Positions 4,254 through 28,800 of a stretch of 64,000 nucleotides of DNA are shown in pieces. The notes under the pieces are model-generated. The model was not told the origin of the DNA, ran no database searches, and was given only the letters and a program-made list of their open reading frames with translations. The number at the start of each line of letters is the position of its first letter. Position 1 is the stretch's first letter. Both the position numbers and the translations under genes were made by a program. The stretch is from a virus, in IMG/VR virus record IMGVR_UViG_3300000401_000001, positions 3,786-67,785 of that record; one strand, 5' to 3'.

Positions 4254-4254
4254 C

Positions 4255-5824: not shown

Positions 5825-7672
5825 TTATTCGGGTTCGTTTCTGACGATATTAGTGAATTCTTGTCTCAAGAACTCTGCAGATGCGCCAGAACTTTGACCA
5901 TTGAGTGTATCAGCTGATGTAAACTTATACTCCAGTTCGTTGTTCGTTAGATTTTCGAGTACGAGAACCACATAATCACCAACACCATCCCACTCATTGC
6001 TGAATGAGACGACAGTTCCAGAAACTCCAGTAGAACTACCAACTACTTGTTCACCCTGAACGAAAAACGTATTGTTCCAATTCTTAAGGATGAAAGTGGA
6101 AGTTGCTACATGCTCGATACCATCTCCCAGTTGTCCTGCTGACTGTACAGTTGCAACCAGGGGAACAAGGTTTGAGTCATAGATTTGATCTCCCTGTTGG
6201 AAGAGTGTGGTGTTTTGACCCCCTACAGTTTCCTCGATACCATAGAGAGATGATGCAATACCACCATCAAGATTGATTTCATTCTCAAAGTCTGTACCAA
6301 TATTTACAAGGTCAATGATTCCATCACCTTCACCATCTAGTTCATCATTATCCTCAAATGTAAAATCTTGTAGTATGCTGATAGGATCCTCAAAAACATA
6401 TATTCTCGATCCTTCAGACTCAATCAAAACGTGAGGTGATACGCCAGTCCCACTAGATCCAGCAACACCAGCAATAAACTGGATTACTGCGGTCTTTTCA
6501 TTTGCACGACCGCCATCAATAAATGCAAGTTCATCTACCTGAAAAGTTAAGAAAAGCTCTCTGGTTTCTGGTCTCCAATCGTATACAATTGCAACTTTAT
6601 TGGATTTGTCCTCTTCTACTCTTCTAAGACGATCCGAAACTGTAAATGAATAACTGGAGATGCCATTTTCATTATCTGCAAGATTATCTAGAATAACGCG
6701 CTGGTCATATCTGAAGTTAATACCTCTAGAGCAGCCAGTGAAGCTAATTGGAGTTTTGCCTGTGTACCTGATAATCTCCTTACCAATCTGAAACTTGCCA
6801 GATCCAGGGAATGCATTTGTAGTTTCTACATAAAGAGTTGTGTCTGAAGGGCCAGCATCTCGGATAAGACCTGTCAAATTAAAGAGCGTAGAAACCAAAG
6901 AAGTTCTATTTCTTTGGGTACGAATGAGATTAGTATCTCTGGTGAAGATTACTTGTGGTTGGGAAGTGTAACCACCACCAGGATTGAGAAGTTTTATTTC
7001 TTTGATTCTACCTAGCTCAATGATAGCTTCTGCCTCTGCACCAGAGCCACCACCACCAATAATCTGAATCAGAGGTGGAGTCTCAAAGAATTCACCTTCA
7101 TTTGTTACTCTGATGTTGCTAATTTGACCAAATGTGTTGACAGATGCAACACCAGTTGCGCCCTGGCCACCACCTCCACTGATAACTAATGTGACATCAT
7201 CAGAATCATAATTTCTACCAGTGGACTCGATAGTTAAACCAGTAACACCACCTGTTACGGGAACAAGTTCTGCCCCAGAACCGCCACCACCTTCCAGTCT
7301 TGCGCTAGCACTAAAATAACCATCTCCAGGCTGTGTTACTTGTAGGAAAGACACAGATCCATCTTGATTTAGATAGATTTGAGCATCTGCCTCAATAATA
7401 TCTGTATCATCGCTTTCGATAATCAGACGAAGAGGATCGTACCCTTCACCTGGATCGATAACATCAACAGAAAGAATCTCTCCATTATTACCGATTACTG
7501 GACGCAAAACTGCGTCTCTAATGGGAGTTCCAGCATTAGAGACAGTGAGCCTAGGTGGATCATTTTTGTCATAACCAGAACCACCATCTATAACGATGAT
7601 ATCTTTAACACCAAATACGCTGTTAAAAACTGGTTCGATTACTGCGCCGCTTCCAGGTACTATTCTTGCCAT
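5825..7672 (-). CDS. Virion structural protein (615 aa) with GxGY..P...GGGG.GA repeats
   Basis: Long ORF in the baseplate cluster with repeated I.V..GG.GY motifs shared with the giant protein; start overlaps the upstream stop. Confidence 0.75.
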   Translation of the reverse strand: MARIVPGSGAVIEPVFNSVFGVKDIIVIDGGSGYDKNDPPRLTVSNAGTPIRDAVLRPVIGNNGEILSVDVIDPGEGYDPLRLIIESDDTDIIEADAQIYLNQDGSVSFLQVTQPGDGYFSASARLEGGGGSGAELVPVTGGVTGLTIESTGRNYDSDDVTLVISGGGGQGATGVASVNTFGQISNIRVTNEGEFFETPPLIQIIGGGGSGAEAEAIIELGRIKEIKLLNPGGGYTSQPQVIFTRDTNLIRTQRNRTSLVSTLFNLTGLIRDAGPSDTTLYVETTNAFPGSGKFQIGKEIIRYTGKTPISFTGCSRGINFRYDQRVILDNLADNENGISSYSFTVSDRLRRVEEDKSNKVAIVYDWRPETRELFLTFQVDELAFIDGGRANEKTAVIQFIAGVAGSSGTGVSPHVLIESEGSRIYVFEDPISILQDFTFEDNDELDGEGDGIIDLVNIGTDFENEINLDGGIASSLYGIEETVGGQNTTLFQQGDQIYDSNLVPLVATVQSAGQLGDGIEHVATSTFILKNWNNTFFVQGEQVVGSSTGVSGTVVSFSNEWDGVGDYVVLVLENLTNNELEYKFTSADTLNGQSSGASAEFLRQEFTNIVRNEPE

Positions 7673-9168
7673 TAGACCACTACGATATTACCGATCATTC
7701 CTGCATGGATAGTGCATTGATATACATAAGTAGTTCCTGGAGTCAGAGTCATAGGAACTGTGTATGTTGTGGTTCCAGAGGAAGAACCACTCACACCAGC
7801 AGTAACTGGAGCTCCACCGTCGCTAAATCTAATCTCAAATGGGTGAGAGCCGCCCGTTGTGTTATTAAATTTGTATGTAAACCCTCTATACACATAGAAA
7901 GTAGGTCCATCAGTTGCAGAGTCTATTCCAGGTCCAGTAAATCTGTACGCAGTTGATCCATTTGCAGTTACAGAATAATACAGAGTTGGAGAAGGTGTTG
8001 TTGTATACTCAGTTCCATCATAAAGGAGTGAATGACCTTCTGTACCAGATGGAAGCGTAATAGTGCTGTCAGCATTGATTGTAAGAGTGCTTCCAACTAC
8101 AGATGTAGTCAGACCAGATCCACCAGCAATCGTAAAGGTATCCGAATCTGTAGTTGCAGTATAAGAACCAGTATCACCAGCAACTGTCTTCAGAACATCC
8201 TGAACAATGTTTGGGGATGTATTTGTAATAGTAATAGCACCTGCATTTAGATTAGTGCTAATACCAGTACCACCAAGAAAATCTAGTGAGTCTGTGGTAA
8301 TGGTTGCTGATGTTTGACCATTGTCAGCACCAAAAGTTGTAAATACGTTTTGATCTGGATCGCCCAGAGAGCCAGTCATGGTGATTGTCAGTGTATCACC
8401 AGATAAAGAAGTGGAGATATTAGTTCCACCAACAATATTCAGAGTGTCATTGGGAGCACTTGCTGTTGTGCTACCAGTGTCTGCAGTAACTGTCTCAAAA
8501 AGATTTGGTGTGACGGGATCTCCACCATTAGTTGTTGTGGAATCATTGGCAGGCTGCCATGCTTGATTTGTAGCATTCCACTTTAAGACTTGCCCATCAG
8601 CAGGTCCACCACCCACGGTAGTATCAACGTCAGACAGAGCATTGATACTGTCGTTTTCATCTACAAGCTTGATCCACGTTGCATTATGCGCAAAATAACC
8701 CTTTCCAGTTTCGTGCACATGAGCAAACATGCCGTGGTGTACAGACGCTGGAGGAAGGTCTCCAAAAGTATCATATGGTGCATACCACTTTAGGTAACCA
8801 TCATCACCATCAATATAAGTGTATGCAGAGCCAGTTCCTCCAGCCCACAACTTAATATCACCAGTTCCAGTCTGGTGAAAAATCAAGTCGTCTGTGGCAT
8901 CAGACACGATCTGATTGCCATTAGTATCAAGATTGCCAGTCAGAGAATCAAGATCTCCACCGCGAAAAGCTGGGGTTGGGGAAGATGACCACTTCAGTAC
9001 CTGACCATCAGTAATGCCAGGACCAATATCAAACAAGATATCAGTGCTATTACCTAGACGGTCATAGAGCTCATCAAAATTTGAGTTATACTTAATGGCA
9101 CCGTCTCTAAGACTATCACCTGTCCCATCATTTGCCGAAGATCCAATACCGACTAGCTGCTTTGCCAT
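7672..9168 (-). CDS. gp9/gp10-like baseplate/tail-fibre connector with C-terminal cupredoxin-like domain (498 aa)
   Basis: N-terminal MAKQLVGIGSSANDGTGDSLRDGAIKYNSNFDELY matches the T4 gp9/gp10 N-terminal motif. Has internal 'TVTADTGSTTA...DTL.I.GG..IST' repeats. C-terminus GSHPF...YQCTIHAGMIG. Confidence 0.7.
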   Translation of the reverse strand: MAKQLVGIGSSANDGTGDSLRDGAIKYNSNFDELYDRLGNSTDILFDIGPGITDGQVLKWSSSPTPAFRGGDLDSLTGNLDTNGNQIVSDATDDLIFHQTGTGDIKLWAGGTGSAYTYIDGDDGYLKWYAPYDTFGDLPPASVHHGMFAHVHETGKGYFAHNATWIKLVDENDSINALSDVDTTVGGGPADGQVLKWNATNQAWQPANDSTTTNGGDPVTPNLFETVTADTGSTTASAPNDTLNIVGGTNISTSLSGDTLTITMTGSLGDPDQNVFTTFGADNGQTSATITTDSLDFLGGTGISTNLNAGAITITNTSPNIVQDVLKTVAGDTGSYTATTDSDTFTIAGGSGLTTSVVGSTLTINADSTITLPSGTEGHSLLYDGTEYTTTPSPTLYYSVTANGSTAYRFTGPGIDSATDGPTFYVYRGFTYKFNNTTGGSHPFEIRFSDGGAPVTAGVSGSSSGTTTYTVPMTLTPGTTYVYQCTIHAGMIGNIVVV

Positions 9169-9191: not shown

Positions 9192-9198
9192 TATTTAT
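9192..9198 (-). promoter_or_regulatory. Late promoter ATAAATA overlapping the upstream stop codon
   Basis: Plus strand tatttat at 9192-9198, 23 nt before the ATG at 9168. Confidence 0.65.
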
Positions 9199-10793
9199 GT
9201 TGCGTCAAAGGAGACGCCAGTAGTATCAAATCTGAGACTGGTGGAAGAGAAGTCTTCCGCCTGTTGCCCAGAGCCAATACCAGTAACAGTTAATACCACA
9301 ACATCACTTTCCAATGGAGAATTTTGTGCTGGTGTTGCACCAATAGGACCACTGACTGTGCACTTATACCTGTAACCAGACATGTATGCAAGAGCAGTAA
9401 ATTCTAAAGTATTGGAAGTTGCGCCATTAATTGTTGCATATGTAAATCCACCATCAGTAGATCTATACCATTGATATCTCTTTGGTCCATCTTCGGGTGA
9501 GATAGATGCAAGAGTTGTAAATGACACAGTTTCCCCAATAGGAGTTGTTGCGTTTTGTGGTTGCAATGTAATCCTAATTGTTGGGGGAATGACTTCTCCG
9601 CCTCCGTCTGTTGGTGGGGGTGGGGGTGTTGCTGCTCCATTGTTAAATGGCTGATCTAGAATCTCTCTAGAGGTTGATCCCATAATGTAGGGAAACACTG
9701 GGATCAACTCATCTTCCGATCCCAGTTCTGTGGATAGAAAATAAGCATAAGTTCCATTAGGATATTCTGGTGTCACACAATGTCTACCATTATGATAATC
9801 TAGATTACCTAACCCTTCACTATATTCCCAATCCTCTATCAAAGAGCCTGCTGGTGGGTTTTGTAGTGTTGATCCGTATGCTGGTCTTCCAGGAACTTCT
9901 TCTGATCTAATTCTGTAAGAACTACTTGCAAGAATAATATTTGATGTATTAACCCAAGGATCTTCATAACAATAAGGTCCGTAAATTGGAAATCCATCAA
10001 AAGCAATTCCTAGAATTTTGGAATGACCATCTGGATGCCTCAGATTATCTCCATTGTATTGTGTGAGACCATAATAATCATTATATGAAGCAATTATATT
10101 GTTTTGCTTCCAACAATCAATAAAATTTGTATCATTGTAGTGATACTGTCCTGACGATTCTGGGTTTCCACCACAAGCATCATCTCCAAAATTTATTGGA
10201 GATTCTTCATAATGTGAATTCCAACTAAATCCAGCTGGAGGGTTGCCAACATCACCACTACTGGGATTGTAGAAAACAACACCGTTAGCAGCAACACCAA
10301 TAGCACCTAATGGAATTTCATTTCTAGCATTGCGCTGATCATAATAAACATAAGTTCCAGAGTATTCTGTTCTTGTATACTCAACAATAAGCTCTAAGTA
10401 TTGATCACTTGCTCTCCAAAATTGACCAGCTGTTGTGGTTTGCGTTGTTCCTGTATACACAAACACTTGCCTTCTTTCTTCACTTGTTCCACCATCAAAT
10501 ATGAAAAGAACTCTATCCCCAGTATCAATTTGATTTCCAAGAAGTGAATTGTCGTTTACTGAAAGTGGAATCTGAATAAGATATCCATTCTGTGTGAACG
10601 AATTGTCGTCAAAAGTTCTAGTAACTCCAAAAGTTCCACCACGATAATAAAAATCATGCCTAAAGTCTTGCTCAGTAACCAAATTTGGGTTACTGGCATT
10701 TGGAAAAGTACCGTAGGAGATGGGATCTGGGAGCCCATCTCCTTCTACGATAATGATCTTAGTCGCGGGATTAAATTCAGCAGTTGCTGTCAT
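9195..10793 (-). CDS. YHYH-domain virion protein with C-terminal Ig-like domain (532 aa)
   Basis: IGVAANGVVFYNP, GQYHY, GHSKILGIAFDGFPIYGPY and GNLDYHNGRHCVTPEYPNGTYAYF are YHYH-family motifs. QPQNAT...YQWYRS...YRYKCTV is Ig-like. Confidence 0.8.
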   Translation of the reverse strand: MTATAEFNPATKIIIVEGDGLPDPISYGTFPNASNPNLVTEQDFRHDFYYRGGTFGVTRTFDDNSFTQNGYLIQIPLSVNDNSLLGNQIDTGDRVLFIFDGGTSEERRQVFVYTGTTQTTTAGQFWRASDQYLELIVEYTRTEYSGTYVYYDQRNARNEIPLGAIGVAANGVVFYNPSSGDVGNPPAGFSWNSHYEESPINFGDDACGGNPESSGQYHYNDTNFIDCWKQNNIIASYNDYYGLTQYNGDNLRHPDGHSKILGIAFDGFPIYGPYCYEDPWVNTSNIILASSSYRIRSEEVPGRPAYGSTLQNPPAGSLIEDWEYSEGLGNLDYHNGRHCVTPEYPNGTYAYFLSTELGSEDELIPVFPYIMGSTSREILDQPFNNGAATPPPPPTDGGGEVIPPTIRITLQPQNATTPIGETVSFTTLASISPEDGPKRYQWYRSTDGGFTYATINGATSNTLEFTALAYMSGYRYKCTVSGPIGATPAQNSPLESDVVVLTVTGIGSGQQAEDFSSTSLRFDTTGVSFDAT

Positions 10794-10806: not shown

Positions 10807-10813
10807 TATTTAT
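10807..10813 (-). promoter_or_regulatory. Late promoter ATAAATA overlapping the stop codon of the giant gene
   Basis: Plus strand tatttat at 10807-10813, 13 nt before the ATG at 10793. Confidence 0.6.
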
Positions 10814-13800
10814 TGGAAGATCTGAGTAGGATCAAAATCTGTCAGAATGGTTGCACCAGTCTGAACTGTAAAGATGATCGAGTTGGAATATACAGGTGTT
10901 GCTCCAGCAGCAGTGATCGCGACGCGATATTCGTCACCATCATCAGCCTGAGTTGCAGGACCAGTTGTGTATACTGCTTGATTTGCACCCGTAATGTTAT
11001 TCCAATCGGTCTCACCATACTGCTTACGCTGCCATTGATAATTCAGAGGAGTAGATCCAACTTCGTTAGTTCCACTGATAATAAAGTCTGCAGATATGCT
11101 GAATTCAGCGGTATTGCCTTGGTTGATCGTGGTGTTAGTAGGTTGATTTCTAATCACGATATAACCAACATCAATAATGATAGGATTGCCTTGCTGATCA
11201 AGTGCTTCACCTGCATATACATCGAATCCACCATTCACTGCGGATCCAGTAGGAGGTACATAATCATCGGGAACTTCTGTCTCTACAGAGACAGAAGCTT
11301 TCTTGTAGCCGATACCAGCACTCTTAACGTCAATTCTGGAGATACCCATCAGTGCTCTAATTCGAGCATCGAAGCCAGATGCGGAAATTACATCAACATT
11401 TGGTCTTGATGTGTAACCATCTCCAGGAGATGTGATGATTGCACCGTTCAGCTTTCCAGAAACGATATCAGCAATTGCTTCAGCACCGCGACCCTTAACA
11501 GTTCCAGTATACTCAAATGTAATCAGAGAGTTGGAAGACTCGATGAGAGCAACCTCACGCTCGTCACTTTCACCTTCGATTTGCAGAACATCACCCGCCT
11601 CGATGGGAGGTACAACTGTTGCTGCGATAACGTCTGCGTCCGAACCAATGTAGGAGAACGCAACGAATGTAGATCCAGCACGAGGAATCTCAGCAAAGAT
11701 GATTCTAGAACCGACAAGCTGGTAGCCAACTCCAGGCTCCTGAATGACACCATTCAGAGAAACGATAATGTTATTTTCTGGGAGAATTGTGTTGGAGGAA
11801 ACACCCTCTGTCAGTGTCAAGGAGTAGAAACCACCAAGGTATCTCAGGTTAAACGAGGAGCGGAGAGAGTCGAACTCAAAGCTAATATCATCAAGTTGCC
11901 TGAGCTTACCAACATAGTAACCGATAAATTCAGATCCAATGCTGGGTGGTTCAGTAAACTGAATTCTGTCGGAGAATGCAGAGTATGCATTTGAGCCACC
12001 AGGAGGCTGCAGAACACCGTTAACAAATACCAAGAGGTGACCAGCTGGATCTGGGAAGTATGCTTCGCCATTATTAACTGTCAGCTTAAAGTCAGTTTGT
12101 ACACCGTCAAATCCACGGAAGAATCTATCACAGCGTCCAAGCAGACCCTTAGACTGAGTTACACCAGCATACCAACCATAATCAGATCTGATTGTGAGGT
12201 TTGATGGGAATTCGCCATTAACATCTTCCAGCCAAATTCTTCCAGTATCACCACTGATTTGCTTACCAGCGATGCGACCGTAGGAAGAGTATTCGGTTAC
12301 TGTTACATTATTAATATTTGCGAGAATAACAGGGAAATTATTCAGGTTCTCAAACTTACCAAGAGCTGTGCCACCAGAAACCAGTTCATTTGGATCTGTA
12401 GTTGTAGTGCCATCTGCTGCCGAGCCATATGGCTGAAGGTTGGCAATCCAGATTTTATGAGTTCCAGTATTCTGAGTGTCATCGAAGTAATCGGTAACAA
12501 CTGCAGTCCATCCAGGAATTTTGGGAACAGTACCGCTAAGGAGATATACAAGATCGCCCTTCTGGAACGAACCAGTATAACCACCATCTCTCACAACATC
12601 AGTAACATCACATTCGATTGTCTTTTCGGCATGAATGAATTGGTTGAGCTCGATATCTCTGAAACCAGTTGCTGTGATGTTTGCAATATTCAGAATACGA
12701 TCTGTGATAGAACCATAAATGATGTCTCCATCGAGGAAGTCGTCGGCAATGGTCTCAATATCAATCTGAATACGACCACCAGTATTTCCAAACAGAGCAC
12801 CAGCAGAATTCTCATATGATGTGATATCTGCTTCAGCACCATTATTCTTGTTAAAGAACATCTCACCGACAGAGAAAGAACCTCTGTCTGCATTGATTAG
12901 AATTCTTTCTGTGCTTGTTCCAGTAATATCTGCTGTGATACCACTATCAACGCCCTCAATAGTGTTTGTGTCGGAGAATACCCCATTCAGATTCTCAACA
13001 TAAATCCAACCCTGATCACTTTGGTCGCCAGTTAATGTAGATGTTTGTAGGATCGTTCCATAGTTCGTGGGGGATCCCTGAACCTGTACGATCTCGCCAT
13101 TTGTGAATCTACCAGATGCATTATCAATGAAGAACTTCTGATAAATTTTGATAATTTCAGCTTCATTATTTCTAGTTCTGATAACCTCAGATCTTGCATT
13201 AGATGCAGTACCAATGAGGATATCTGCAAGATTAAATCCAGCACTGATTGGGGTGTCGATATCAGGATTGCCGTATACTGCGGAAGTGCGAGTGATACCA
13301 GAACGAACGGTTGTCTGTAGGATCATTTGACCCGTGAGACCAGTATCGAGAGCAAAGGCTCTGAATCTAGCATCATGGCGAAGTTCGCGAGCAATCTCAA
13401 ACCACTGAGGTTGTGCATTCAGAACATAGTAATACTGTTGATCTTGCAGACTCTGCTCAATATCATCAGAAGCTGGAATATACTGAAGAATATCACCGCG
13501 AGAGAAGAAGTTTGGACGGTTGATGCGGACAACATTTTCTCTTCTCTCAAACCCAACTTCGATAGTTGGGGTGAGCAGAATAAGTTCAGGATCTGTGTTG
13601 TAGTCTTCACCTTCGTCATACAGATTGGTCAAATTCTGAACGTCTGTATTATTGATATAAGTTACAAAGTTTGTGCTTGGTGCCTTAGATCTGCTCAGAG
13701 CAAAGTATGCAAGATTGAGGGAGCTGTCAATTCTAAATTCCGAAGACTCCTCTTCATACTCAAATCTGTTGTTAATGGCAGCAGTCAGAGTTTCATCTTG

Positions 13801-16800
13801 ATACAAGTCATATCCATTCCACTGAGCAGCATTATTGTTATCATAGAGAGCACGCTTAACATACTCACGAATGCGAGTTACATAGAACAGAAGATGCTGT
13901 CTTGTGACACCCTCAAAGGCAATGAAGTTGCCTTCTCCATCAAACCAAGAGTTAACAACCTTGAGCATACCCTGGTTACCACCAGTATTGAGATCATAAA
14001 TCAGACCGTCCAGGATGGGATCGGCAAAATCAATAGTTGCTCCAGTTCCAGGATATTGAGTAGATGTTCTCTCAAATGACTTGGCTGAGATCGCTTGCTT
14101 ATTAAACAGAATGTGTCTAGCACACTTGCGATCGGAGTAAGAACCACCACCAATCGTGTCGATCATTAGATCAAACAGTGCTTCTGCTGCAGTTGTAACA
14201 TTGTAGCAAGTATAATACTGATATTCAGTATTACTATTCCATGGTGTTTCACGAGTAACTGTAGTCAGATGGCTGGGATTGCCAGCAGCTGCTTCACTAA
14301 TGGTATTTGTGACAATATCAAACAGTGTTTCGATTGTAGATGCAACTTGAGGGCATGTTTGGTTCCAATCAGCAGCAGCACTATCATAAGTGATAGTGAC
14401 ATCACGAACTGCCATTTCGGGAGTGTACTTGATTGGCCAAATATTTGGCAGTGTTTTTGTGATAGTACCATCCTCAATATTTGTGGGAGTGGTAATCGTA
14501 TCAGTAACAATTCCAATCAAGTTGCTAATCGCGTCAGCAACATTCTGGCAGTTTGTAACAGTATCTTGAGTTACTGTGTAACCACCTTGATTGTATGGAT
14601 AGAAATCCAAATCAAGATAGAACTTCTGCGTATAACCATGCGAACCTTGGATCGTGAGAGTATTACCTCTCATAACCTCGATTGCAAGATCTCTTGCCTT
14701 CTCAAAAATCCAAATGGATTCTGTAGACTGAGTTGCAATGTGCTGGAGATTGCTATTGTTTACATAGAACTCAGCAGCACGGAAGACCTTATTGTTTCCA
14801 CCATAACGGAGGTTCCATACCATCGCCTGAAGAACATCAGTTACGTCATGAACGCAATTGATTGCCCCGCCAGGAATAGAAAGACCAGGGAACTGTTGCT
14901 GACCCAGATATACTGCTTCTTCAGCAATTAGACGAGTGTTTCTCTCGATAATGTGGGAAGCGTCAATAAAACGATCATCAACTGCATTGCGCTCATAAGT
15001 CTCAACATCAACAGCATCGAGAGAAGAAGTTCCGATACCACCAGGAACAGTGGCGCCACCTTCTTCTTCATTATAGATGTAAAGATTATCTCTACCGAGA
15101 CCGTTTCTGATCGCAAGAATACAAAGTTCAGAAGCAATCTTGTAAGTGTCGATTGCAGCTTCAGCTTCATTCTCAATATGCAGAAGACTTTCATCTTCTG
15201 GATTCAGATACAGTTTCGCAGCATCCCAAGTTGCAGAATTGCCACCGAGTCTGAGATCATGGATGATCGCATCAATAACACCCATCACATCAGAAGCGCA
15301 CTTATCTGGACCATTGGGAATCTCAAGGTCAAGATACTTGGAGAGATCATTCATGGTATATACTGCTTCCTTAGCAATCAATTCTTTGTTTGCTTCCAGA
15401 AGATTTGCAGCATCAATCATCTGGTTCTTTGTTGGATCCAGATACTCATAACCTTGAGTGTCTACAGTGATTGTAGTGTCTCGATATGCGGGAATTTCAG
15501 TATACTGAGCGACATAGTAATCATCTTGGAGATCCGAGATAATACCAATTTCCGAAGCGGTTGTACCAAACGACAGAAGTGTATTGTTGATTGCATGATG
15601 TACAAGTTTCTTAGTGAACTCAAATGCGTCCAGCATTGCGCTGAGTTCTTTCTCAACATGAGTAACAATATTATTGCTACCAATATAGAAGTCGAGAACA
15701 CGCTGAGTAGAAGAATTGCCACCAGTCAGAAGATCAGTAATAACCGCAGGAAGAATGTATTGCTTGATATCTCTAGCACATACTGCATCGCCGTTAAATC
15801 CAGGGATTACCAGGAAATCATATTCCGTACCGTTGATAGTTGCTTGATACTTGGCATTCAGCCAACCAACAACTTCTTGAGCGATGTAGTCTCTATTCTT
15901 CCAGATCTGGTTACCAGCATCGCGATATCTTTGTCCAGTTGGAGCAAGGATATCTGCAATTGTATTGGAAAGATCAATAATTTCATTCTGAATTGACTGA
16001 GATGCTGGAGATGCAAAGTTATTGGGGATACGAAGAATATCCGTGTACTTAGTGCCATTATATGTCTCCAGATCCAAAGATGTGGTAGTAATCACATAGT
16101 TGCAGACATTAGCGACTTCAGTCCATGCAAATACAGACTGAAGAAGCTCATTACCAACGTATGCGAGATCTCCACTCTTAGTGAGATAACCTCTACCAGC
16201 AATCACGCTATTGTAATTGCCACCATACTTAATGTCCTCGATAATTGCCTTCAGAATATATTCTTTAGTATCGCGGAGACAGAAGTTTGTACCTTGCTGA
16301 GGTCCAATACCATCTGCGGTATCACCAGGCATGATGAAATCGGGATACTTTTCCTTCATCAAACCAACAGTAGTTTCTGCAATCCAATCGAGATTGAGTT
16401 CCAGAATTTTGGCACACTCTCTATGCTCATCTCTAGACAGATTGATGTCTTCGACGATAACCTTTCTTTCATCATAATTAACACTCTTCGCTGTAGTGGA
16501 AGAATTGGTCTGACCTGTATACACACCATAGACTTCCTCAGTGCTCATAATGATGGGTTGTTCTGCATTCAGAGCAAAGGAGATATTCTGGTTATCTGTT
16601 GGGAATGTCGTACCAGGGGTAAAGTTTGCGCTATAATCCGACTCACCCTTCTTAATGATAAAGTTGTCGAGGTGACCAGAGAGAGTATCTGCACCGTTCC
16701 AGCCAGCAAAGATTCTGAAGGGTCTCTCCAGGTAGCTATTGCTATCGGAATAGTCACTTCCAATCTGAGTGCCGTTTACAAACAGTTTAGTGATATTTGT

Positions 16801-19800
16801 GGTTCTGGTAAGTGCAACATGATGCCAGTTATCTATCGTCATCCCATGAGCACCAGAGATTCTATCAGATCCATTGACCCAGAATCTGATGCTGTTTCCA
16901 TCAAGATAGAGAACAGGAGAACCTGGGAGGGAAGAGTTATCAGCTCTAGTGTCGAAGATATACTGGATACCAGTCAAACTGTCAGGTCTAATCCAAGCTT
17001 CGATTGTGAAGTCATCTTGCTCAAACTTGACTACATCTGAGAGTGGGTGTGAAAGATTACCGCCAGACTGGAATCTGAGAGAATTAGTACCAGCAATCTT
17101 CTGCAAAGATGTGATGGCAACATCGCCGTTCACACTAATTCTGGTATTTGTGATGTACTCTCTATTTGTAAATACACCAGAGATAGAATTTGTATAAAGC
17201 CATCTCAGACCAGTGTTAGTGCCCTGGACAGTGAATGTAGTTCCAGAAGATGCGCCAGTGATAACATCGCCAGGGAAGAAGAAGCCATTGCCACCCTTAT
17301 CCTTATAAGCAACTTTCAGAACACGAATAGTCTCATTTTCCTGATAGGAGCCATCGCTCACAATAGGAAGTGCATTGATATTTGTTAGATCCCCTGCTGC
17401 AATAGCTGTGGTTGCGATGGTAGTGAGAGTATCCAAAGCAGCCTGAACATCAGCACAGTTGTTAATGTCTTGGTTGTTACCCAAGCCATAGTTAGGATCG
17501 TAAGTATGACCTTCAGTTGCCGAAGTTAGATAAGGACCAGGATATGTGATTGGATCATAAACAAGTGTAAGGTCTTTTTCATACAGAAGGTTGTTGATAG
17601 CACGCTTAGCGAGATCTCTTGCCTTCTCAAATGCAGTGATTGATTCTGCTGTTTCACCAACCAAACCATTACTAATAGGAGTGCCATTAGCATCAAAGTA
17701 GAATTTGGTGAACTTAACTGTGGCATAGTTTCCATCGCCTCTGATGTCAGCAGCCAAAGCATCAACAAAATAACCAATGTCACGACGGCACTTGTTCTCG
17801 GTTGCACTATATGTGCTAGGTTGTACCAAGTCAATCAAATCGGCAAGAGAACCAGCCAGAAGAACTTCAGACACATTGTCAAACAGAGTTTGCAGCGTTG
17901 CCTGAACATCAGAGCAGTTATCAGGACCATAATTTAGAGTGTTGCTGCCAGGAGTTCCATATGGATTTCCAGGGGAAGGATCTGCAGTAATACCAGTGCC
18001 ACTGGAACCTCCAGTCACGCGCTCATTGTAAAGATTAAAGGTGTCCACACCAATTGTTACAGAGCCAGTAAGCATATTTGACAATGCTTGCTGCATGTAA
18101 GTAAGTGCTTTGCTGAATGCATACTCAGTTGCTTCTGCTTCATTGTTTACATAGAGGAAAGTCAAGCCATCCTCACTGAAGTACATCTGCAGGAACTTAC
18201 GAGTATAAACAGTTCCACCTTGGAACATATCCATCGACAGTGCATCGATGAAGTGGCCAATATCTCTCTTACACTTAACATCACTTGGGATGGGCAGAGT
18301 TGGATACTGAACAACCATGTCCTCATAGGACTGTGCAACGATATAATCCTTATTAAGAGCAATCAAACGATATGCATCAGCATAACGGCTGAACTGATCG
18401 GTCTGATTATCGCCAGGATAGTAGAAACCAGGATGCTGAACTGCAATTTCTGCATTAGCAAAATCAACAATTTCCTGCTTGTTGGCGAGAATCAGATTGG
18501 ATGCATCATACCATCTGTTGAGAGCATCAGTGACGGTATTGCCATACTCAATAGTGATGGAACGGATAGTATCATTTTCAGCCAGAGCGCCACCAGTCAG
18601 ATTTTCATACTCAATTTCGGTAGAACGAACTTCCTCAAAATCAAGGAAGTCTGCATTAATACGCTGGCTTCTGTCATTGAGAAGAACAGGAGTAATGGTT
18701 GTCTCGGAGATATTATCAAGAATGACATTCTGGTTTGTGAGAGAGATAAGACGCTCAAAAATCAAACCAAAGAAGCTGGAACCCTTATTGATAACGAGAG
18801 TATCAACAACATCACCAAGTCTAATATCGCCTTGGATTGTATCGTTAAGATTGTTTGTATTGGAAGTGATCAGTTCTCCATCAATAAAATCTGCAACCGT
18901 CTTCTTAATGAAATACAGAACAGGTGGATTCAGGTTAGTATCGACACGAATAACTTCACCGACAGCTCCAGAAAGACCACCAGTTACTTGAGAACCAGCC
19001 TCAAACTCAGTACCATCGACAAGATTTACAGAAACAACAGGGTCTCTATAAGGAGCAATTCTGGTAATTCTTGCTGCAATATTAGAGCTTGCAGAATAAA
19101 TGATGTCATTCAGATTGATGTTATAAGTTCCAGTCTCAAATTCTGCAGTACCTGATGTCTTCGACAGCACCAGAGTGGAATCGATATTGCCATCAAGATC
19201 GATATTTGTTTCTTCGACCTTTGCAGTATCGCCTCTCATGTTGGTGACTGTCTCACCAAATCTATAGATTGTTTGCTGGTTTACATTTTGGATACTTCCA
19301 ATGAGTGCACTAAAACCTGTTCTTGAGACATCAACACGCTCATTTAGTTGGAAAGGACCGCCAACAATATCAACAATATCGATAGAAGTTGCACCAGTGT
19401 CAACAACTCTTGCTCTTGCTTCAGACTCAAAACCGTTAATAAAGTCACCAATCGAAGGGAAGATGCCGCCGATAGTGTTCAGATTCAGTCTAGTGATAGG
19501 TAGAATCTCAATCTCAACATTTCTGTAAACAACCTTAGAGTCAGGTCTGGGCGCTTCATCGAAGACAATCTCATTACCAACAACAGTGTAAGACTCGCTA
19601 GGTGCCTGAATTACACCGTTAACAGTCACCAGAAGCTGATTGTCTTTAACAATAACTTGCTCACCCTCAACTGTCAGTGGGAAGTTCTTACGAACACCAT
19701 CAAACAGACTACTGATATCATCGATCTTCTTAACGATAGAGGTAAGAATTTCCTCAGAGTTTGTCAGTCTCTTCTTACGGAAAAGAACTTCAGAGTTGTT

Positions 19801-22800
19801 AAATGCTGAGTAGATTGGTTGTGCTGCACCAAAAGAAGTAATTTGATTTACATTAGTGTATTCACTAATGTTTACTTGCTTGGTGAATTCTGTACCGATC
19901 TTACGACCAGAAACATCCTCACCACCAGTCAACTGCAGCTGGCCAAAGAGGTTAAAGCCTGCTGGGTGGTTGTTCTCAAGAATCTGCTTCTTCCACTTGT
20001 TAATAGGAATAGTGGACTTGATAACATAAGAGAAGTTCTGGTAGAAGTAAGAATCCTGAATCTTCTGAACGATTTCAGAAGGCTTACCGATATCATCGAT
20101 GAATCTGCCAGGAGTTTTAGTCAGTGCATCGATATTCAGAACGCCTTTTGCGAGATTGACATTATCAATAACACCAGAAGCTCTAGAAACAACACCCTGA
20201 ACCTTACCACCAACTACAAATTCTCCTCTAGAATCAACAATCTTGAGAATCTTGGGTCCAATCTGCCAACCATCATTTGCAGACACATATCCATATGCAC
20301 TTGCCAGCTCATAGGATTCGCCCTGGAATACTTCTTCACCCTCAAGGAATCTGGAAGTTTCCACAACAGCCTCTGCTTTACCACCAAAAACTTCGGTAAG
20401 CAAAATTTGACGACCATCACCCTGAGTCAAGAACGTGATGAAGTTACCAGCTTCAGCATCAACAGGTGTCAGAGCAAAGCGCAGTTGATCAGATTCCAGA
20501 CCATTTGCTTCGCCAGCAATAGCATAATAAGTCTGAGTGGAAGATAGACTTGTCAGACCAACGCTACTTGGCTTGGGGAGAACACCAACAGTCGAACCGA
20601 CATCTTCAGCACGGAGCTGAATTTCTGCACCTGTGGTGATGCCATGTGGGAAGTTAAACTGCAGGTAATTGAGGTCAAGGTTTACAACATAAGTAAACTC
20701 GGACTTTAGGGTTACTGAGGGTTGGGAGGAATAACCAGATCCAGGATTTTTGATGATAATTTCACTCAAACGGTTATTTCTAACAACTGCAACAGCCTCA
20801 GCACCAGAACCACCACCACCTTCGATCACAACTGCGGGCTCTGATGTATATCCAGCACCAGGGTCTGTAATGCGAATTTGGGAAAGAATGGAAGTATTAA
20901 ACAGTTGCAGGTTGATTGGGAACGAGATCTCAGGGCGAAGAGTGTAGTCATGAGAATAACCATATCCAAATTCATTGCTCTTCAGAGTCTTGATTCTACC
21001 AATCTGCGTACCTGTAAGGAACACAGAAGCACCAGTACCTTCAGGTGGAATCACGACCTCAAGCTCGCCACCAGAACCTGAAAGTGTAGGGCCAAGGATA
21101 CCTTCTACAGAATCAACATCAACTACACCAAATGTATAGCCTTTGCCAGGATTTGTAAGATCAACCTTTGTAATTGTTCCAGATCCAACTTCATCATCAA
21201 GTTCGACAGTAATATTCACAAGACCACCTTCACCATCACCCTGGATCGGCACCTGAGTGTAAACACCAGCGGCATACTCAGTACCACCAGCTACAATATT
21301 GACCTTTTCGATCTTACGGAAAGAAGAAATATCCTCAATCACAGGCAGCTTCTTATAGAAGCCACCACGAGATACCATCTTGATTGTATTGATGGGTCCA
21401 ATAGCCTTCAGCGAGGTGGTGGAATAATAAGAATTGGGTTTATCGAATTCATCCAGACCAACTTCAGCATTCGTAAACTCAGGCTCAAATTCCAAGGGGA
21501 ATCTAAACTCAGTGTCGTTAATTACAGAAGAAATTCTGAACTTACCATCGAAAGGTGTCTTGATAACATCAATGAAGGAGTTTTCACCAACAGGAGAATC
21601 ATCACCAAGTCTAGAAGGATCGAAGTAGTATGTAATATTAGTAACTTCACCAGAAACAGTAAACTTAACTGTAGGAGTTTCCGTTGCAGAGGCAAGACCA
21701 GGAGTGCCCTCGCGCTCAATGACGTTAAAGGAATATTCCAGCTTAAACTGGTTGTCTTCAGAGAACGACAAATAGTATCCAAAGTTGGAAGGATCACTCA
21801 TATCAAAGATATAAGAATGATTCCTCACAAGAAGTAGTGTTGGGTGCTTAGATGCAATCTTAACTCTAGAAATAGCCCCCTGAGCAAACTGTGGTTCTGA
21901 ATCTGCTACAGCACGAATCTGGTAAATAAAGTCTCTAGAAGAGAAGACTTCCTTAACAAAGAAGGAACCATTAAACTGATCAGTAGTGAAACCTTCTACA
22001 AACAGAATATCACCAGCATTAAATCTATGAGGAGTCAAAGAAGTACAGTAGATAAGATCTGTTCTTACCTCAGATGTTCTAATGATATCTTTGTTCAGAT
22101 TTGTCGTCAGAACAACAGATTTTGCAGAAGTGATCCCATCGATAAATGCAATCTTGTTATTATCTTCTGTTGGGCCAGTAGTTACTTGACCACCAAGAGA
22201 AATAACATCACCAACAATAAATGTTGAGTTGGAATATACTTCAGAAATCTGAACTCTATAATCCGCAGAATCGTAAGGTCTGAAAGTCGCATAATCCGAC
22301 AGAGGATCATAAGTAAGAACATATTCCCATGTTACAGTACCATCGGTAACAGTACCTGAGGTGTGTGTTGGGGGAACGGTACTAGATACACCTGCAACAG
22401 TGCACTTGTACTTATTTCTACCATAGTACACATTCTCGTCGAGAGCATAAGACTTATTCTCTTGCCACTCATTCTCCAATGGTGCTGGCCATGGATAGTC
22501 GGATAGATCAACTTCCAGAGCAGGTGCAGCACTAATGTACTGCCACAGAACTCCACCATCGGTTACAATACCGATTTCATGTGTTGGTGGGATATCACCA
22601 GATGTTGCAGTATTTGTCGCAACGTAGATCTTACCATCACTATAGACTTGATCATCTACATTATACTGCTGTCCAATTCTCCACTCATCTTGAGGTCTTG
22701 TTACAGTGAAAGAGATTTCATCAATTGTATTCTGTTGATTTGTGGAGTTCTTAAAGCTGTCTGTATTGTTAAAATTACCAAAAATCTTACCAATCTTGTA

Positions 22801-25800
22801 GGTTCTGCCAAGACCAGGAGTATTCACAGCACCAGTGGGAACATCCACAATGGTTCCATATGCCTGAACGACACCGAGGCTATTCACCTGTTGGAGAAGG
22901 GTTCCTTTATCGAAGAGCACATCCTGGTTAAATGTGAATTCCAAGACATTATCGATCTTCTGGTATGATGCATCTCTAATGTAGAACTTAGGCGTTACCT
23001 TTGCATCAAGAATTAGCTTCTTACCAAGAGGTGTTGGAATTGTGGAAGTTTTAGATGCAAATGTATGAATGTTGCTATTAAAGGTGTAAGTTCCAGGATT
23101 TAGCTGAGAAGTCACATCGGAATAGTCGAGAATCTGCAGACCGCTAGCACCTTCATTCCAGATAGTAATGACAGGATTATTCAGTGTATTTACATTTACA
23201 CCCGTGGTCTCTACAAAGTCAAGAGCATCGGTATATACAGTAGATGCGATACCAGAATACAGATTTCTTGTTGTATGTCTACGATCAAACTTGATGAGAT
23301 TTACTTGAGAATTTGTAGAAGTGATCTCATACCTAGTTGTGGGAACTGGGAATGCAGCTTCAGTATAAGTAGCAACCGTATCAAAAATCAGATCATCGAT
23401 ATAACCGAGGAATACATTAGAGAGTGCTGGAGATGTTGGATCTCCAGATACGGTGACAGTATCAGCTCCAACATCAGTCGTGCTAACAACGCTAGAAACA
23501 TCAACGCCATCAAAATACAGATGGTATTCATAAGAACCAAGAGAAGGCTCTTCCTTAACGAGAGCAATGTGGTGCCATGCTTGATCCTGGATTGCTGTCC
23601 AGAAAGTAGAACCAACAGACAAAGTTGTGACCGTGCCAACACCAAATGTGTTGACATCAAGAATCATCTTGCCATAATTGGGGCTTCCGCTGTTACCATC
23701 GAGTGTTGCAACTACGCTATTGCCTTCATTATCTTCGATAGTGAAGAATTTGATTTCTGGGTTATTTCCTACATGAGCTGGGAGCATCTGCACCCAATTC
23801 GCTATAGTCCACTCAGAATTGACATTGACATTGGCGAACTTAATATTTGTTGCAGAATCGAGCTTGAGAGAGCCAGTACCAAACTTAAAGATTCCAGTAT
23901 CTACGCTTGCTGCAGAAGGAGCAGATAGTGTTACTGTAACGCTTTCTTGCTTAGTCGAGTCGAATAGAGGATTAGCAGCATCATCGAAACGATGTACAAA
24001 CGACTGTACAGGCTTCTGTTTATTTGCCAGGAAGATGACATCGCCAGAGTTATCAACAACATGAGTATTGACAGTAAAGCCAATGTTATTGACATCTTCT
24101 ACAGTTGTGCTATTGAGGAGAGTGCCATCATACTTAAAGTTCATCAAAATAGCACGCTGGTCATTATCCTCATAGCGAATAGCAGCAACAATACTGACGT
24201 TACCAAAGATATCTACTCTGATGTCAGCATGATTGATAGAATCGAAAGTTCCACTTGGTGCAATGATCTTAGAGAAGTAATATGTGGGGATCTGAACATT
24301 TGTAGAGATCTCACTCAAAGCAATCTTAAAGAATGCAAGTCCATAGTTCTTAGTTCCATTCCACATATCGCAGATGAAGAACAGATCATTTTGCTCATCG
24401 AGAGTGAAACGGGGGCGCTGAACATCACCACCAGCAATTGCAAGTCTCTTAACATAAGACATCTCAATATTGGCACCATCATATTCCATCTGACCAAACA
24501 TCAGATCATCATTATCACGGTCGATACCACAGAAAAGAATCTTGTTATCGCCAATATAATGCAGCTGATGCATTTGCTCACCTTCTGTGTCTGAGGAGAA
24601 CTTACGCTTCTCGATAACATCACCAAGGTTATTGAGCTGCATTACCCAAATATCATCGGGATCTGGAGAGTTTGTATCTGTCCAACCGCAGATATAAACT
24701 CTTTGCTCATCATCAAGATAGATATCACCAGCATAATCCCTACGAGTTCCGCCAGAAACACCAGCAATTTCTTTCTGCCAACGAACAATACCTTCTGGGT
24801 TGTTAGCATTGTCAAAACCAGACTGATACTTGGCAACTAGAATATCTGGGTTGTAAGAATCGTTTGACTGCGACTCGGTTTCACCAAGCAGATAGATCAG
24901 ATGATCTTCTTCACTGATTTCATCGAGATAGATAGATTTCCATCTAGCAACTTTTCTGCTAGCACTTGGAAGAAGGGTTCTATCCCAAATCAGAGAACCA
25001 AGATCACTGAATTTGGCGACAAAAGCCGAAGAATCGCCATTCTGTTGAGTTAACTGACCACAGACATAGATATGTCTCTCAGAAGAAACTACAGAATCAA
25101 AGATTTCGATACTTGCAGCATCTTCGTAGTATTCCGACAGCCAGTAGTACGTCTTCTTAAACTGTTGAGGGTGAGAAACCCTAATCTGAGGGGGATTATC
25201 GACATCATACCCAAAACCAGAGTTGATGATATCAACTTGAGAAACTTTACCAGTAGTTTCATCCAGGATAATATCAAACTCCACATCCTGACCATTTTCT
25301 GAAATAATTTCGTAAGTGGGAGGAATTTGTTGATTATATCCAAGACCATCTTGCAGAACATCAATTCTGTTCACACCAGTAACAACACTGGTGTAAAATA
25401 CCTTATTAGTATTGTCGGTGATAACCTTAGAATTGACGATAATTTCGTCTTGAGCAATAAGTTCGTGATTTCCTGCAGTTACAATTTTTCCATAAGGAAC
25501 ATCATCGATGATTTCCTTGGTGTAGGATATAATTTCTTGACCTTGTACAGACTCAATCTGTGCAGAAGCGCCAAAGCCATCAGTACCTTCATTATTAAAG
25601 AAGAGGGTGTCTCCAACTTGATAGTCTTGACCAGGATTCTCAATAACGAAACCATCAATCTGTGCACTCTCAAATTTGGTAGTAGTTTCCACCTCAATAT
25701 CAACCCTAGAGTCTGGAGAAACTCTGGGGAAGTAATCATAGATCTGCAGAGCTGCTTCTTCTGTCAGTGCTTGTTGTTCAGCAAGCTCAAAAGGACTGAT

Positions 25801-28800
25801 CAGACCGTCGTTGTCAATATCTTCTACCTCAAAGATGATCAGATCACCTTCTTTTTCAGTAACGAGGGAATCTGATTGTTGATTTGGTTGACGATCAATA
25901 TCAATGTCAACGTTTACATAAGGATCTCTAAAGCGAGCAACATCAGCAGGAATATTTTCCTGAATTGCAGTCTGACCCAAATTCCAGGTATCTACAACCG
26001 AATTAAACTGAGGTCCGATGATGTATGGATAAACAGGAAGACCAGCATCAGACTCATCAATAGTAATGAAGTATGCATAAATTCCATCTGGATACTCGGG
26101 AGTCTTACAAAAACGACCATTGTAAGCATCCAAATCGCCAGTCTGGAATGTATATTCATAGTCTGCTACAAACGTACCAGCAGGGTACTCATTTAGAGAT
26201 GGACCATCAATACGCGCAGGGGTTGGGTTTGTATCTGGGTCAAAGACAATATTGGATTTGAGTTTATAAGAAGAACGCATTCTTCTTACGCCACTATTTT
26301 GGTCTGTAGGATCAATATAACCGTAGGGACCATAAATGGGATTGCCATCAAATGCCCAACCAATAATAGGAGAGTGCGAGATATTTGCAGGGAACTCCTG
26401 GAATTGGTTTGTTTCTGGATTAAGGAATACGTTATCGCCAACTACATAACGGAGCTGCTTAGGATCGGAAACGTGAGCATACTCGCCACCATACTGATTG
26501 TTAAAACCAGTAAAGACGTAACCGCGAGCTCTGTCATAGCTACTATTCAGTACATACTCAATATTCTTATTCCACTTATATACGTCTGCACTAAATTCTG
26601 CTAGCTGACCGACAGCTTCGATTCTGACAGTAGTATTGCCCTGGGTGTAGCCAATGCCTCTGTTTGTGATTTGGATAGAGATTACCTTGCCTCTATCCTC
26701 ACCGATGGTTCCAATGATAGCTCTAGCTTGCGCACCAAAACCATCACCATTGATGTAAACTGTAGGTGCAGTTGTATACTTTTCGCCAGAATTAATAATA
26801 GCAATAGACACAATACGCCCATTGATGACAATGGGCTGTGCAAGAGCACCCTCACCAGAATTCAGTTTGATAGTTGGTGTCGATGTGTAGCCTTGACCGC
26901 GATTGGTCAGATTTACTGAAGAAATAGGACCACGAACGTTTGCAACTGCTGTAGCACCCGATCCGCCACCACCCGTGATGGAAATTGTTGGTTGTGAAGT
27001 GAATCCAGTACCAGGGTTATCCACAAGGATTCTAGTCACCTTACCGCCAGTAACAACTGCTTGCGCAGTTGCTCCAAAACCACCACCACCAACAATAGAA
27101 ATCAGGGGTTGCTCTGTGTAACCTTCGCCTTGATCGATAACTTCTACACTGTCGAGATGACCATTTACTTCTACAGTTGCAGTAGCGCCTGTACCACCAC
27201 CACCTGTGATTTCCAGAATGGGCTTTGTGCCAGCGTCATAGTTTTCACCACTATTCAGAATGTTAATATTAGTTAAAGGACCAAAAGTGACGAATTCTCC
27301 AGACTTAAATGACCATGCAGAAACACCATTAACAAAAGTGCCGATAGGAGTGCTGGGATCTACCTCTTTTCTTGTAGAAACGGTCTCAACTTTTCTAGGA
27401 ATTCTAATCAGTTTACGCTGATTACCAGGAATCAGAGCAGAACCTTGGAAAGGACCAATCCTGTAGTTGGGAAGACCAGATGCAGCAACATAAACGTAAT
27501 CATCATTAAAGAATGAATTCTGGATATTGGAGGTAAACAGTGAGATAACATCATTGATTGTACTCACATTGGATTTACCTCTATTCAGATCAACTGAAAG
27601 GAGGATATTACCCTGGGGTACAATGAAAGTAGGTGTTGGGATAGTATATGAGAAAGTATAATCATCAATACGAGAAGTTACCTCGAACGTTCCATTATAA
27701 ACTGCAGGGTTTGCACCATAAATCGTAACCAGATCTTCTACGAGGAGACCATGGGGGTTTTCACAAACAACAGTTGCAGTTTGATTATTAACACCACCTG
27801 GATTGATGCTGGCAACCTTGATCAGCTTTTTGACATTGTAAAGCCAAGATGTGAGCTTTTGATCAATATCTGTGGAGCCAAGTTGAGCAACAGTCAGTTT
27901 ATCGCCAGGCAGATAGTAAGAACCACTATCCTGAAGAATTGTTGTAGATGCTTCAGCGATACCAAAGATACGAAGTTTAACTTCAGTATCAAGACCTTTG
28001 TTTACATATACAAAAGTATCCGAGAAGATAGGAGTGCCAGGATCCCAATCCTCAACAACACCGTTCTTAGAACGAGTACACTCAATAAACTGGTTGAGAG
28101 ATTTTTCTTTATATTGGACTACCTCTTCGTCATTGATGCGAATCGTGCCATTCTTTTCTGGCCATCCAATAGTAGAGTCTACTGTGATAATGGTATCTTC
28201 AGTATCGAGAGGCTCTACCAGATTTGTTTTATATGGGATGATAAATTCACCCTGAAGAGTTTCTTCAGAGATAGTCAGTTCGTAAATAGTGTCAGTACCC
28301 TCAATGATCGAGATAACGTTTTCGATCAAAACAGATGCATCTTTGATCTTGAGATCGACTGGATCTGCATATTGGCGTAGCTGAGAATTCTCCAGATTTC
28401 TAGGGTCACCAGAGATCAGCTCGGCACGAAGAATAGTATCAACAACCCAAGATGCTGCGGATGGAGTAAGTAGCTCTTCTCTTGGATAGTAAATATCAAC
28501 CTCTTCCCCGAAAAGAATCTTAAAGAGGTACTGTGTTGCAACTTTTGTGCCTTTAGAGCGATAGAAATCCCTAATGCTCTTGATTACCTGAACTGGATTG
28601 ACAAGCTCATAATCGATATTGATCGTGGGCATGTACTGACGACGGAACTTGTCGAATACCTGCTTAATGATCATTGCGTCCAGGTTCACGACTTGTGCAC
28701 CATGAACATGATTTGTTTGAGCGAGTTGCTCTTCCTTCGCAAAGATTTGATTGCCAAATCTATCAAATCTGACAATATCAGAAACACCTCTAGCACAGCC

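Follow-up and report, generated by a model that had tools for sequence, protein, structure and literature searches.

A giant open reading frame (ORF) of a T4-like cyanophage contains, in its C-terminal third, seven units that, as far as computation with sequences and predicted structures allows, are almost certainly homologues of the phycobiliproteins and share their fold. This ORF (P0001; 6,622 amino acids, aa) lies on the minus strand of a 64,000-nucleotide stretch of DNA (positions 3,786 to 67,785 of IMG/VR record IMGVR_UViG_3300000401_000001; hereafter the window), which belongs to a 75-kb cyanomyovirus fragment that is about 41% complete. The protein occupies the gp7 slot and is a predicted baseplate component of the virion, and from sequence we predict, with a probability of roughly 45%, that its phycobiliprotein-like domains carry covalently bound bilin.

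A first-pass annotation of the window had proposed tandem phycobiliprotein-like domains within a giant baseplate protein at positions 13900-18520, from three motif blocks that recurred about seven times. According to the ORF list and its translation, all of the quoted motifs fall inside this one ORF. The six strings compared with the alpha-84 chromophore helix of phycocyanin are present, with their Cys codons at 18271-18273, 17788-17790, 16279-16281, 15778-15780, 15298-15300 and 14854-14856, and the block compared with beta-phycocyanin starts at 14964 as described. The block likened to the beta-155 helix has Cys codons at the three places given for it (17914-17916, 14353-14355 and 14206-14208), and two more were found at 17455-17457 and 14548-14550. 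The location of the array therefore stood, while its extent needed a small correction, as the true span is slightly wider (about 13756-18546).

Seven phycobiliprotein-like units in a gp7-slot baseplate protein

A hidden Markov model (HMM) trained on unit 1 together with its orthologues detected exactly seven copies in the giant ORF, all of them within residues 4045-5641 (R1 to R7; Table 1). This agrees with the approximate count of the first pass, R7 being a copy without the Cys. After the per-unit alignments had been cleared of cross-contaminating sequences, profile-profile comparison (hhalign) of unit 1 with units 2-7 on these orthologue alignments gave probabilities of 95.6-99.6% (E 1e-8 to 6e-25), and the repetition of the units is far beyond chance. 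The Pfam model of the phycobiliproteins, PF00502 (Phycobilisome), matched the C-terminal half of the giant ORF with 41 bits (E 2.5e-10). Taken singly, only R1 passed the cut-off of 22.2 bits (25.6 bits, E 1.3e-5); R3 stayed under it with 14.5 bits, and R2 and R4-R7 are tied to the PF00502 family only via their hhalign matches to R1, in the range just given.

Searches of the PDB with a single sequence or a profile returned phycocyanin alpha chains, aligned at Cys84, as the seven best matches, at marginal E-values of 0.06-0.9. In HMMER, the R1 motif KCKRDIGHF...GGT aligned gap-free to CpcA residues 83-104, which bears out the proposed identity of its Cys-to-GGT spacing with that of the alpha-84 helix. 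An AlphaFold2 model of R1, made from a 20-sequence alignment, had a predicted local distance difference test (pLDDT) score of 75 and a predicted template modelling score of 0.77. Phycobiliproteins made up all of its top 50 Foldseek matches in the PDB, and VIA-align superposed it on phycobiliprotein beta subunits with Z 15.5 and a root-mean-square deviation (rmsd) of 2.0-2.6 A over 130-150 residues at 16-21% identity, the superposition spanning beta-subunit residues 7-177 with the X-Y hairpin included. The model of R6 (pLDDT 62), in which helix H was not confidently modelled, gave Z 10-11.2 and an rmsd of 2.7-4.1 A over 103-115 residues, and its top 50 entries were likewise all phycobiliproteins. 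Among AlphaFold DB clusters, by contrast, Foldseek found nothing that stood out, "Phycobilisome protein" coming at ranks 16 and 20 (E ~1). The structural check that had been suggested for the repeats came out in favor of the domains, the models of both R1 and R6 adopting the phycobiliprotein fold. On the combined evidence of predicted structures and PF00502, the fold claim holds, most strongly for R1 and by homology for the other units.

R1 has the same globin-like fold, X-Y hairpin included, as the alpha and beta chains covered by PF00502 (phycocyanin, phycoerythrin, allophycocyanin and cryptophyte beta). The phage units match Cys84-x-Arg86-Asp87 in its location within helix E and in its distance from GG[TN], and the second Cys of the beta subunits at the start of helix H (Cys153/155) may likewise have a counterpart. 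However, phycobiliproteins are stand-alone proteins of 160-180 aa that form (alpha-beta)3 discs and are encoded in apc/cpc/cpe operons, whereas the phage has seven tandem copies fused into a late structural protein. The phage units also differ in having a shorter B-E loop and an invariant Asp and Tyr of their own. Only R1 is complete and the other six units are shortened: most copies have no X-Y hairpin, R2 has no helices A/B, and some copies have no helix H. The array is mainly tandem yet interrupted, by an insertion of about 300 residues between R2 and R3, by an insertion of about 50 aa in the G-H loop of R1, and by two extra segments after R6 that match the helix-H region of R1 with an hhalign probability of 83%. 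In orthologues of no more than 55% identity (L005, L025, L012 and others), the region that corresponds to aa 5350-5400 has an unrelated stretch with the consensus ...NNIITRSFKxGEDKISTTDSGTG in place of what follows helix G of R6, and their helix H of R6 would be either displaced by an insertion or absent.

The giant ORF lies between gp6-like and gp8/gp9-like genes, with a virion structural gene also located downstream. It matched PHROG virion structural and baseplate wedge families at E 0 to 2e-300; PHROG 2885 and 708 (baseplate wedge subunit) matched at E 2e-300 and 1.6e-87. The Pfam model Baseplate_wedge (PF23786) reached only 21.8 bits, under its cut-off of 27. Gene-cluster position and similarity to wedge families place the protein among the gp7-like baseplate wedge initiators, and annotations of its orthologues name them baseplate wedge initiator, gp7 or virion structural protein. 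Among the matches listed, two Synechococcus phages are the closest isolates: S-SZBM1, with a nucleotide identity of 81% over the region, and S-WAM1, with an amino-acid identity of 82%. S-SZBM1_208 (6,619 aa) is 91% identical to the giant ORF over residues 4045-4445 and was seen in purified virions by mass spectrometry with 71 peptides (PMC9146016). The first-pass description of the array-bearing protein as a giant baseplate protein is supported.

T4 gp7 and the giant gp7-like proteins of cyanophages (P-HM2 PHM2_086, S-SZBM1_208 and P-SSM2 gp7) share this genomic slot. T4 gp7, however, has about 1,030 aa and no phycobiliprotein-like part. The P-SSM2 homologue is itself giant (about 5,195 aa; NC_006883.2 75005-90592) and, unlike the giant ORF studied here, has no such module (also PMC3037559 supplement), which indicates that the array is an accessory cassette of gp7-like proteins and not the cause of their size.

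This virion context bears on the idea that the domains act inside the cell before assembly, as mimics of or sinks for host bilins, lyases or phycobilisome linkers, and are packaged incidentally. Homology to the antenna subunits of the host speaks for it, and phages do manipulate phycobilisomes, for example via NblA (10.1101/2024.11.10.622831). However, the domains sit in late structural proteins that are found in virions (PMC9146016), a small soluble protein would be better suited to the task than a baseplate subunit of 6,600 aa, and no prominent stand-alone phage copies were seen, most matches being proteins of 2-8 thousand residues. We consider this explanation very improbable.

The first-pass annotation knew of no earlier description of such domains. 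Our full-text literature searches found no paper discussing the phycobiliprotein resemblance of these phage proteins, and the S-SZBM1 paper gives the protein solely as a baseplate wedge initiator (PMC9146016). On the other hand, most homologues, those of S-SZBM1, S-WAM1 and S-RSM4 among them, bear a PF00502 mark in precomputed Pfam annotation. The resemblance is therefore already visible in public databases, though apparently undiscussed.

Bilin-site residues across the cyanophage domain family

A tblastn search with units 1 and 2 against 50,697 phage records matched 347 of them, with up to 11 places per genome, and the domain-positive records were, among the matches listed, Synechococcus or Prochlorococcus phages or cyanophage-like. 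Structure matches in BFVD were to cyanophage tail and fibre proteins and to proteins of uncultured Caudovirales. Homologues mostly have 2,000-8,000 residues and up to 34 matched stretches per protein. P-HM2 carries the domain both in its gp7 (PHM2_086) and in a tail fibre protein (PHM2_096), and S-PM2 has 11 matches. The domain family is a building block of cyanophage fibres and baseplates.

In phycobiliproteins, the bilin is bound by a thioether to Cys84 and is contacted by Arg86 and Asp87. The corresponding C-x-R-D motif is intact in R1-R4 of the giant ORF (KCKRD with Cys4136 in R1; KCRRDIGYF with Cys4297 in R2), reads C-x-[SH]-D in R5 and R6, and has lost its Cys in R7. Across 20 orthologues, the Cys, Arg and Asp of R1 are unchanged, as are the Cys, His and Asp of R6. 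An exhaustive profile search yielded 802 representative proteins at E <=1e-3, and we based the site statistics on the best 150 of these 802 plus the giant ORF, that is, 151 representatives (50% identity clusters) with 1,348 domain copies; in the count of family membership, about 1,281 aligned copies stand behind the percentages for the three residues. Retention over the 1,348 copies was 98.4% for Cys, 94.9% for Arg and 99.4% for Asp, compared with 36% for the median column. These percentages are somewhat inflated because the HMM favors motif-bearing copies, although the three columns make up a small part of the score. The equivalents of Cys84, Arg86 and Asp87 are almost invariant across the phage domain family.

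Cysteine is otherwise scarce, at 0.7% of residues across the representative proteins and 0.44% in the giant ORF. As many as 1,324 of the 2,996 cysteines of the representative proteins (44%) sit in C-x-R-D, and a single Cys column is more than 60% conserved in the family alignment. The giant ORF has five N/T-C-x-x-V sites at helix-H starts, namely Cys4255 (NCSDVQ, in R1), Cys4408 (NCADVQ, in R2), Cys5377, Cys5442 and Cys5491, which, judged by helix-level and not residue-level superposition, may correspond to Cys153/155 of the beta subunits. Family-wide, such Cys153-like sites number between 101 (by HMM) and 322 (by regular expression).

The first-pass annotation had named a structural disulfide between the two Cys as the fallback if no bilin were attached. 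An obligatory bond between helices E and H was rejected here: in R4 and R5 the helix-E Cys stands alone, there being no Cys in helix H, and after R6 there are two helix-H Cys that lack a partner. Because Cys84-like sites greatly outnumber Cys153-like ones, both in the giant ORF and family-wide, and several units have one Cys without the other, such a bond is untenable.

Some other Cys chemistry could still be imagined, either metal or cofactor binding together with an invariant Asp, or an inter-domain or inter-subunit disulfide or cross-link that makes the baseplate rigid. An invariant Asp (C+14) and Tyr (C+30) do lie on or near the face of the Cys helix, R3 and R5 have an additional Cys in helix G, and the giant ORF contains another metal-type domain, YHYH. 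However, the core offers no equally conserved partner Cys, Cys153-like sites are about 4- to 13-fold rarer than Cys84-like ones, and positions 84 and 153 are far apart in the phycobiliprotein fold, as known from established structures. The co-occurrence with cpeT described below would also be left unexplained, and we judge this chemistry improbable.

Link to cpeT and to light-dependent adsorption

Cyanophage bilin genes (cpeT, pebS, pcyA and ho1) are host-derived genes of the pigment pathway carried by the same phage group; they encode small enzymes whose presumed target is the host antenna. The domains described here may instead be substrates that form part of the virion itself. No ho1, pebS/pcyA or cpeT was found in the source record, which is uninformative given the incompleteness of the fragment. 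In its close relative S-WAM1, cpeT was the sole bilin gene found. A tblastn search for CpeT-like sequences matched 308 records, the matches listed all being cyanophages.

We tested co-occurrence in the 16 cyanomyoviruses of Sullivan et al. 2010 plus S-WAM1, and then in five further phages, 22 genomes in total. The domain and a CpeT-like ORF (PF06206) are both present in 14 of the 17 cyanomyoviruses, although in P-SSM7 and S-ShM2 this ORF passes on summed scores only (28.6 and 23 bits). The other three, P-SSM2, S-SM2 and S-SSM7, have neither, and no CpeT-like ORF was found in them even at E 10. The domain was not found in the podovirus P-SSP7, in the cluster C myoviruses S-CREM2, S-B68 and S-N03, or in S-CBWM1. 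Our cpeT search of P-SSP7 was negative, and the other four phages are described as having an S-type lyase only and no cpeT (PMC10665884). Presence of the domain thus equals presence of cpeT in 22 of 22 genomes. One of the positive genomes, Syn1, has a clear full-length CpeT match (GU071105.1 19950-20462; 187-aa ORF, PF06206 E 1.5e-35) that resembles the long S-PM2 type and not the short type of most cyanomyoviruses; Table 3 of Sullivan et al. 2010 gives no CpeT-like gene for this phage (PMC3037559).

Two other associations were tried and rejected. Bilin synthesis genes do not follow the domain, unlike cpeT: pebS and ho1 occur in P-SSM2 and S-SSM7 as well as in P-HM1 and P-HM2 (PMC3037559 Table 3), the first two being domain-negative, and S-WAM1 has the domain and neither gene family. 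S-type lyases fail likewise, since the cluster C phages and S-CBWM1 carry one (PMC10665884) and none has the domain; in our own search of these four phages, the S-type lyase model PF09367 passed solely in S-CREM2 and S-CBWM1.

The distribution was also compared with adsorption phenotypes. Jia et al. in 2010 are said to have found that adsorption of S-PM2 is light-dependent. In the literature on Prochlorococcus phages, P-HM1 and P-HM2 showed no adsorption in the dark, P-SSM2 adsorbed in the dark but less than in the light, and P-SSP7 adsorbed in the dark (Liu et al. 2019, PMC6628666); that paper cites Jia 2010 for light-dependent adsorption in Synechococcus phages. A further report states, citing Jia 2010, that dim red light does not support adsorption (10.1101/167650). 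S-PM2, P-HM1 and P-HM2 carry the domain and P-SSM2 and P-SSP7 lack it, so that the domain is concordant with the phenotype in five of five phages.

Given the near-invariant triad, the cyanophage-only distribution and the link to cpeT, the most economical explanation is that the domains still bind bilin. Late in infection, they would be chromophorylated in the cytoplasm, the Cys84-like sites being loaded by lyases of the host (S/U or E/F type) or autocatalytically, and the Cys153-like helix-H sites by CpeT, the T-type lyase that the phage itself encodes. Because T-type lyases act specifically on the beta-153 position (PMC10452541), phage CpeT is predicted to serve the helix-H Cys. The baseplate of the virion would then bear covalently bound bilins, which might form a light-responsive element, for example by gating the deployment of fibres or baseplate, and could lead to light-dependent adsorption. 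Such a light-gated role in adsorption seems to us unlikely, and we are similarly doubtful of the full proposal, in which baseplate and fibre domains of cyanomyoviruses carry bilins, partly loaded by CpeT, and a virion-borne photoreceptor gates adsorption and explains the role of phage cpeT, which has been stated to be unresolved (PMC3037559).

Several points weigh against bilin attachment or against the use made of it here. We know of no report of pigmented cyanophage particles, and there is no direct evidence for a chromophore. Our check of pocket residues covered the C-x-R-D triad only. The family's own invariant Asp (98%) and Tyr (96%) are not phycobiliprotein hallmarks and hint at a different ligand or a structural role. 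The B-E loop, which covers the bilin, is much shorter than in phycobiliproteins; in R6, PGG and three residues are followed directly by the Cys. These phages encode only a T-type lyase, yet Cys153-like sites are a minority (5 in the giant ORF; about 100-320 family-wide versus about 1,300 C-x-R-D), and the pebS and ho1 carriers P-SSM2 and S-SSM7 are without the domain. P-SSM2, S-SM2 and S-SSM7, which have other unusual gene content in common (PMC3037559), probably form one clade, and the pattern across 22 genomes may therefore reflect few events, even one. Finally, about three or four independent lineages stand behind the five phages of the adsorption comparison.

Some of this would suit an exapted apo-domain, the main rival to bilin binding and a possible, if tentative, explanation. 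A captured host phycobiliprotein gene would serve as a helical spacer or oligomerization module, no bilin would be bound, and Cys, Arg and Asp would be kept for folding, inter-domain contacts or assembly. The up to 29-34 concatenated copies per protein resemble a structural repeat, many copies are truncated, as seen in R2 and in the several units without helix H, and the degenerate, Cys-less R7 is tolerated; the shortened loop and the family-specific Asp and Tyr point the same way. However, a purely structural role fails to predict 98-99% retention of three bilin-contacting residues at <20-30% overall identity, does not predict unpaired Cys in an extracellular protein, and leaves the genome-level link to cpeT unexplained.

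If bilins are attached, this would be, to our knowledge, the first pigment-bearing, light-sensing phage particle, and it would show clearly how an antenna protein of the host has been exapted for the structure of the virion. If they are not, the capture of a host gene into structural proteins would still be notable, and the near-invariant Cys-x-Arg-Asp would then need explaining. Two questions are open in this field: what makes the adsorption of some cyanophages light-dependent, and why a T-type bilin lyase gene occurs on its own in most cyanomyoviruses, including those whose host is Prochlorococcus, a cyanobacterium without phycobilisomes. A domain family with an intact bilin site that is co-distributed with cpeT offers a concrete, bench-testable candidate for both.

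Features of the array and of the surrounding region

Table 1. Positions of the giant ORF, its neighbours and the units of the array in the window.
Feature	Residues (aa)	Window positions	Strand	Description
Giant ORF P0001	1-6622	10810..30678	-	gp7 baseplate-wedge-initiator slot; phycobiliprotein-like array in C-terminal third
gp6-like gene		30686..32767		Upstream of giant ORF; gp7-slot neighbour
gp9-like connector		7672..9168		Downstream of giant ORF; gp7-slot neighbour
gp8-like wedge gene		4255..5790		Downstream of giant ORF; gp7-slot neighbour
R1	4045-4284	17827..18546	-	Complete fold: X-Y hairpin, A/B hairpin, helices E, F, G, H
R2	4287-4435	17374..17820	-	Helices E to H only; HMM match; hhalign to R1 99.6%, E 5.6e-25
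Insertion between R2 and R3	4446-4744	16447..17343	-	Beta-rich, with Laminin_G_3/concanavalin-like domain (aa ~4546-4674; PF13385 E 1e-17)
R3	4753-4866	16081..16422	-	FCLRD (Cys4800); HMM match; hhalign to R1 97.1%
R4	4909-5038	15565..15954	-	VCARD (Cys4967); without Cys153-like site; HMM match; hhalign to R1 97.6%
R5	5061-5195	15094..15498	-	KCASD (Cys5127), Ser for Arg; HMM match; hhalign to R1 96.9%, to R6 99.4%
R6	5235-5397	14488..14976	-	NCVHD (Cys5275), NCQNV (Cys5377)
Two extra helix-H-like segments after R6		14149..14373	-	Cys5442, Cys5491; no helix-E partner; read from sequence
R7	5519-5641	13756..14124	-	Degenerate; Cys84-like position not Cys, GGN kept; HMM match; hhalign to R1 95.6%

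Outside the array, the giant ORF has further recognizable parts. A YHYH domain (PF14240, E 3.4e-30) lies at aa 1394-1541 (26056-26499, minus strand), and the next ORF after the giant one (9195..10793) matches the same PHROG-family region as the YHYH-bearing stretch. Further along, at aa ~1860-2110 (~24350-25100, minus strand), four spaced hydrophobic-x-C-[GD] motifs resemble beta-propeller blades and hold 4 of the 14 cysteines that lie outside the phycobiliprotein-like region. A second, weaker Laminin_G_3 match (aa 2277-2430; 23389-23850, minus strand; E 9e-5) and a CBM_5_12-like stretch (aa 2665-2693; ~22600-22690, minus strand), both under the Pfam cut-off, suggest that the central part of the protein has carbohydrate-binding modules.

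The C-terminal end of the protein (aa ~6502-6611; 10846-11175, minus strand) matches PHROGs of Hoc-like or Ig-like head or tail decoration proteins (phrog_613, 3995 and 4069). Elsewhere in the window, a 176-aa ORF at 34337-34867 (minus strand) matches the PAAR-motif PHROG phrog_281 (E 4.8e-22) and adjoins a 1,275-aa baseplate-wedge-like ORF (34870..38697).

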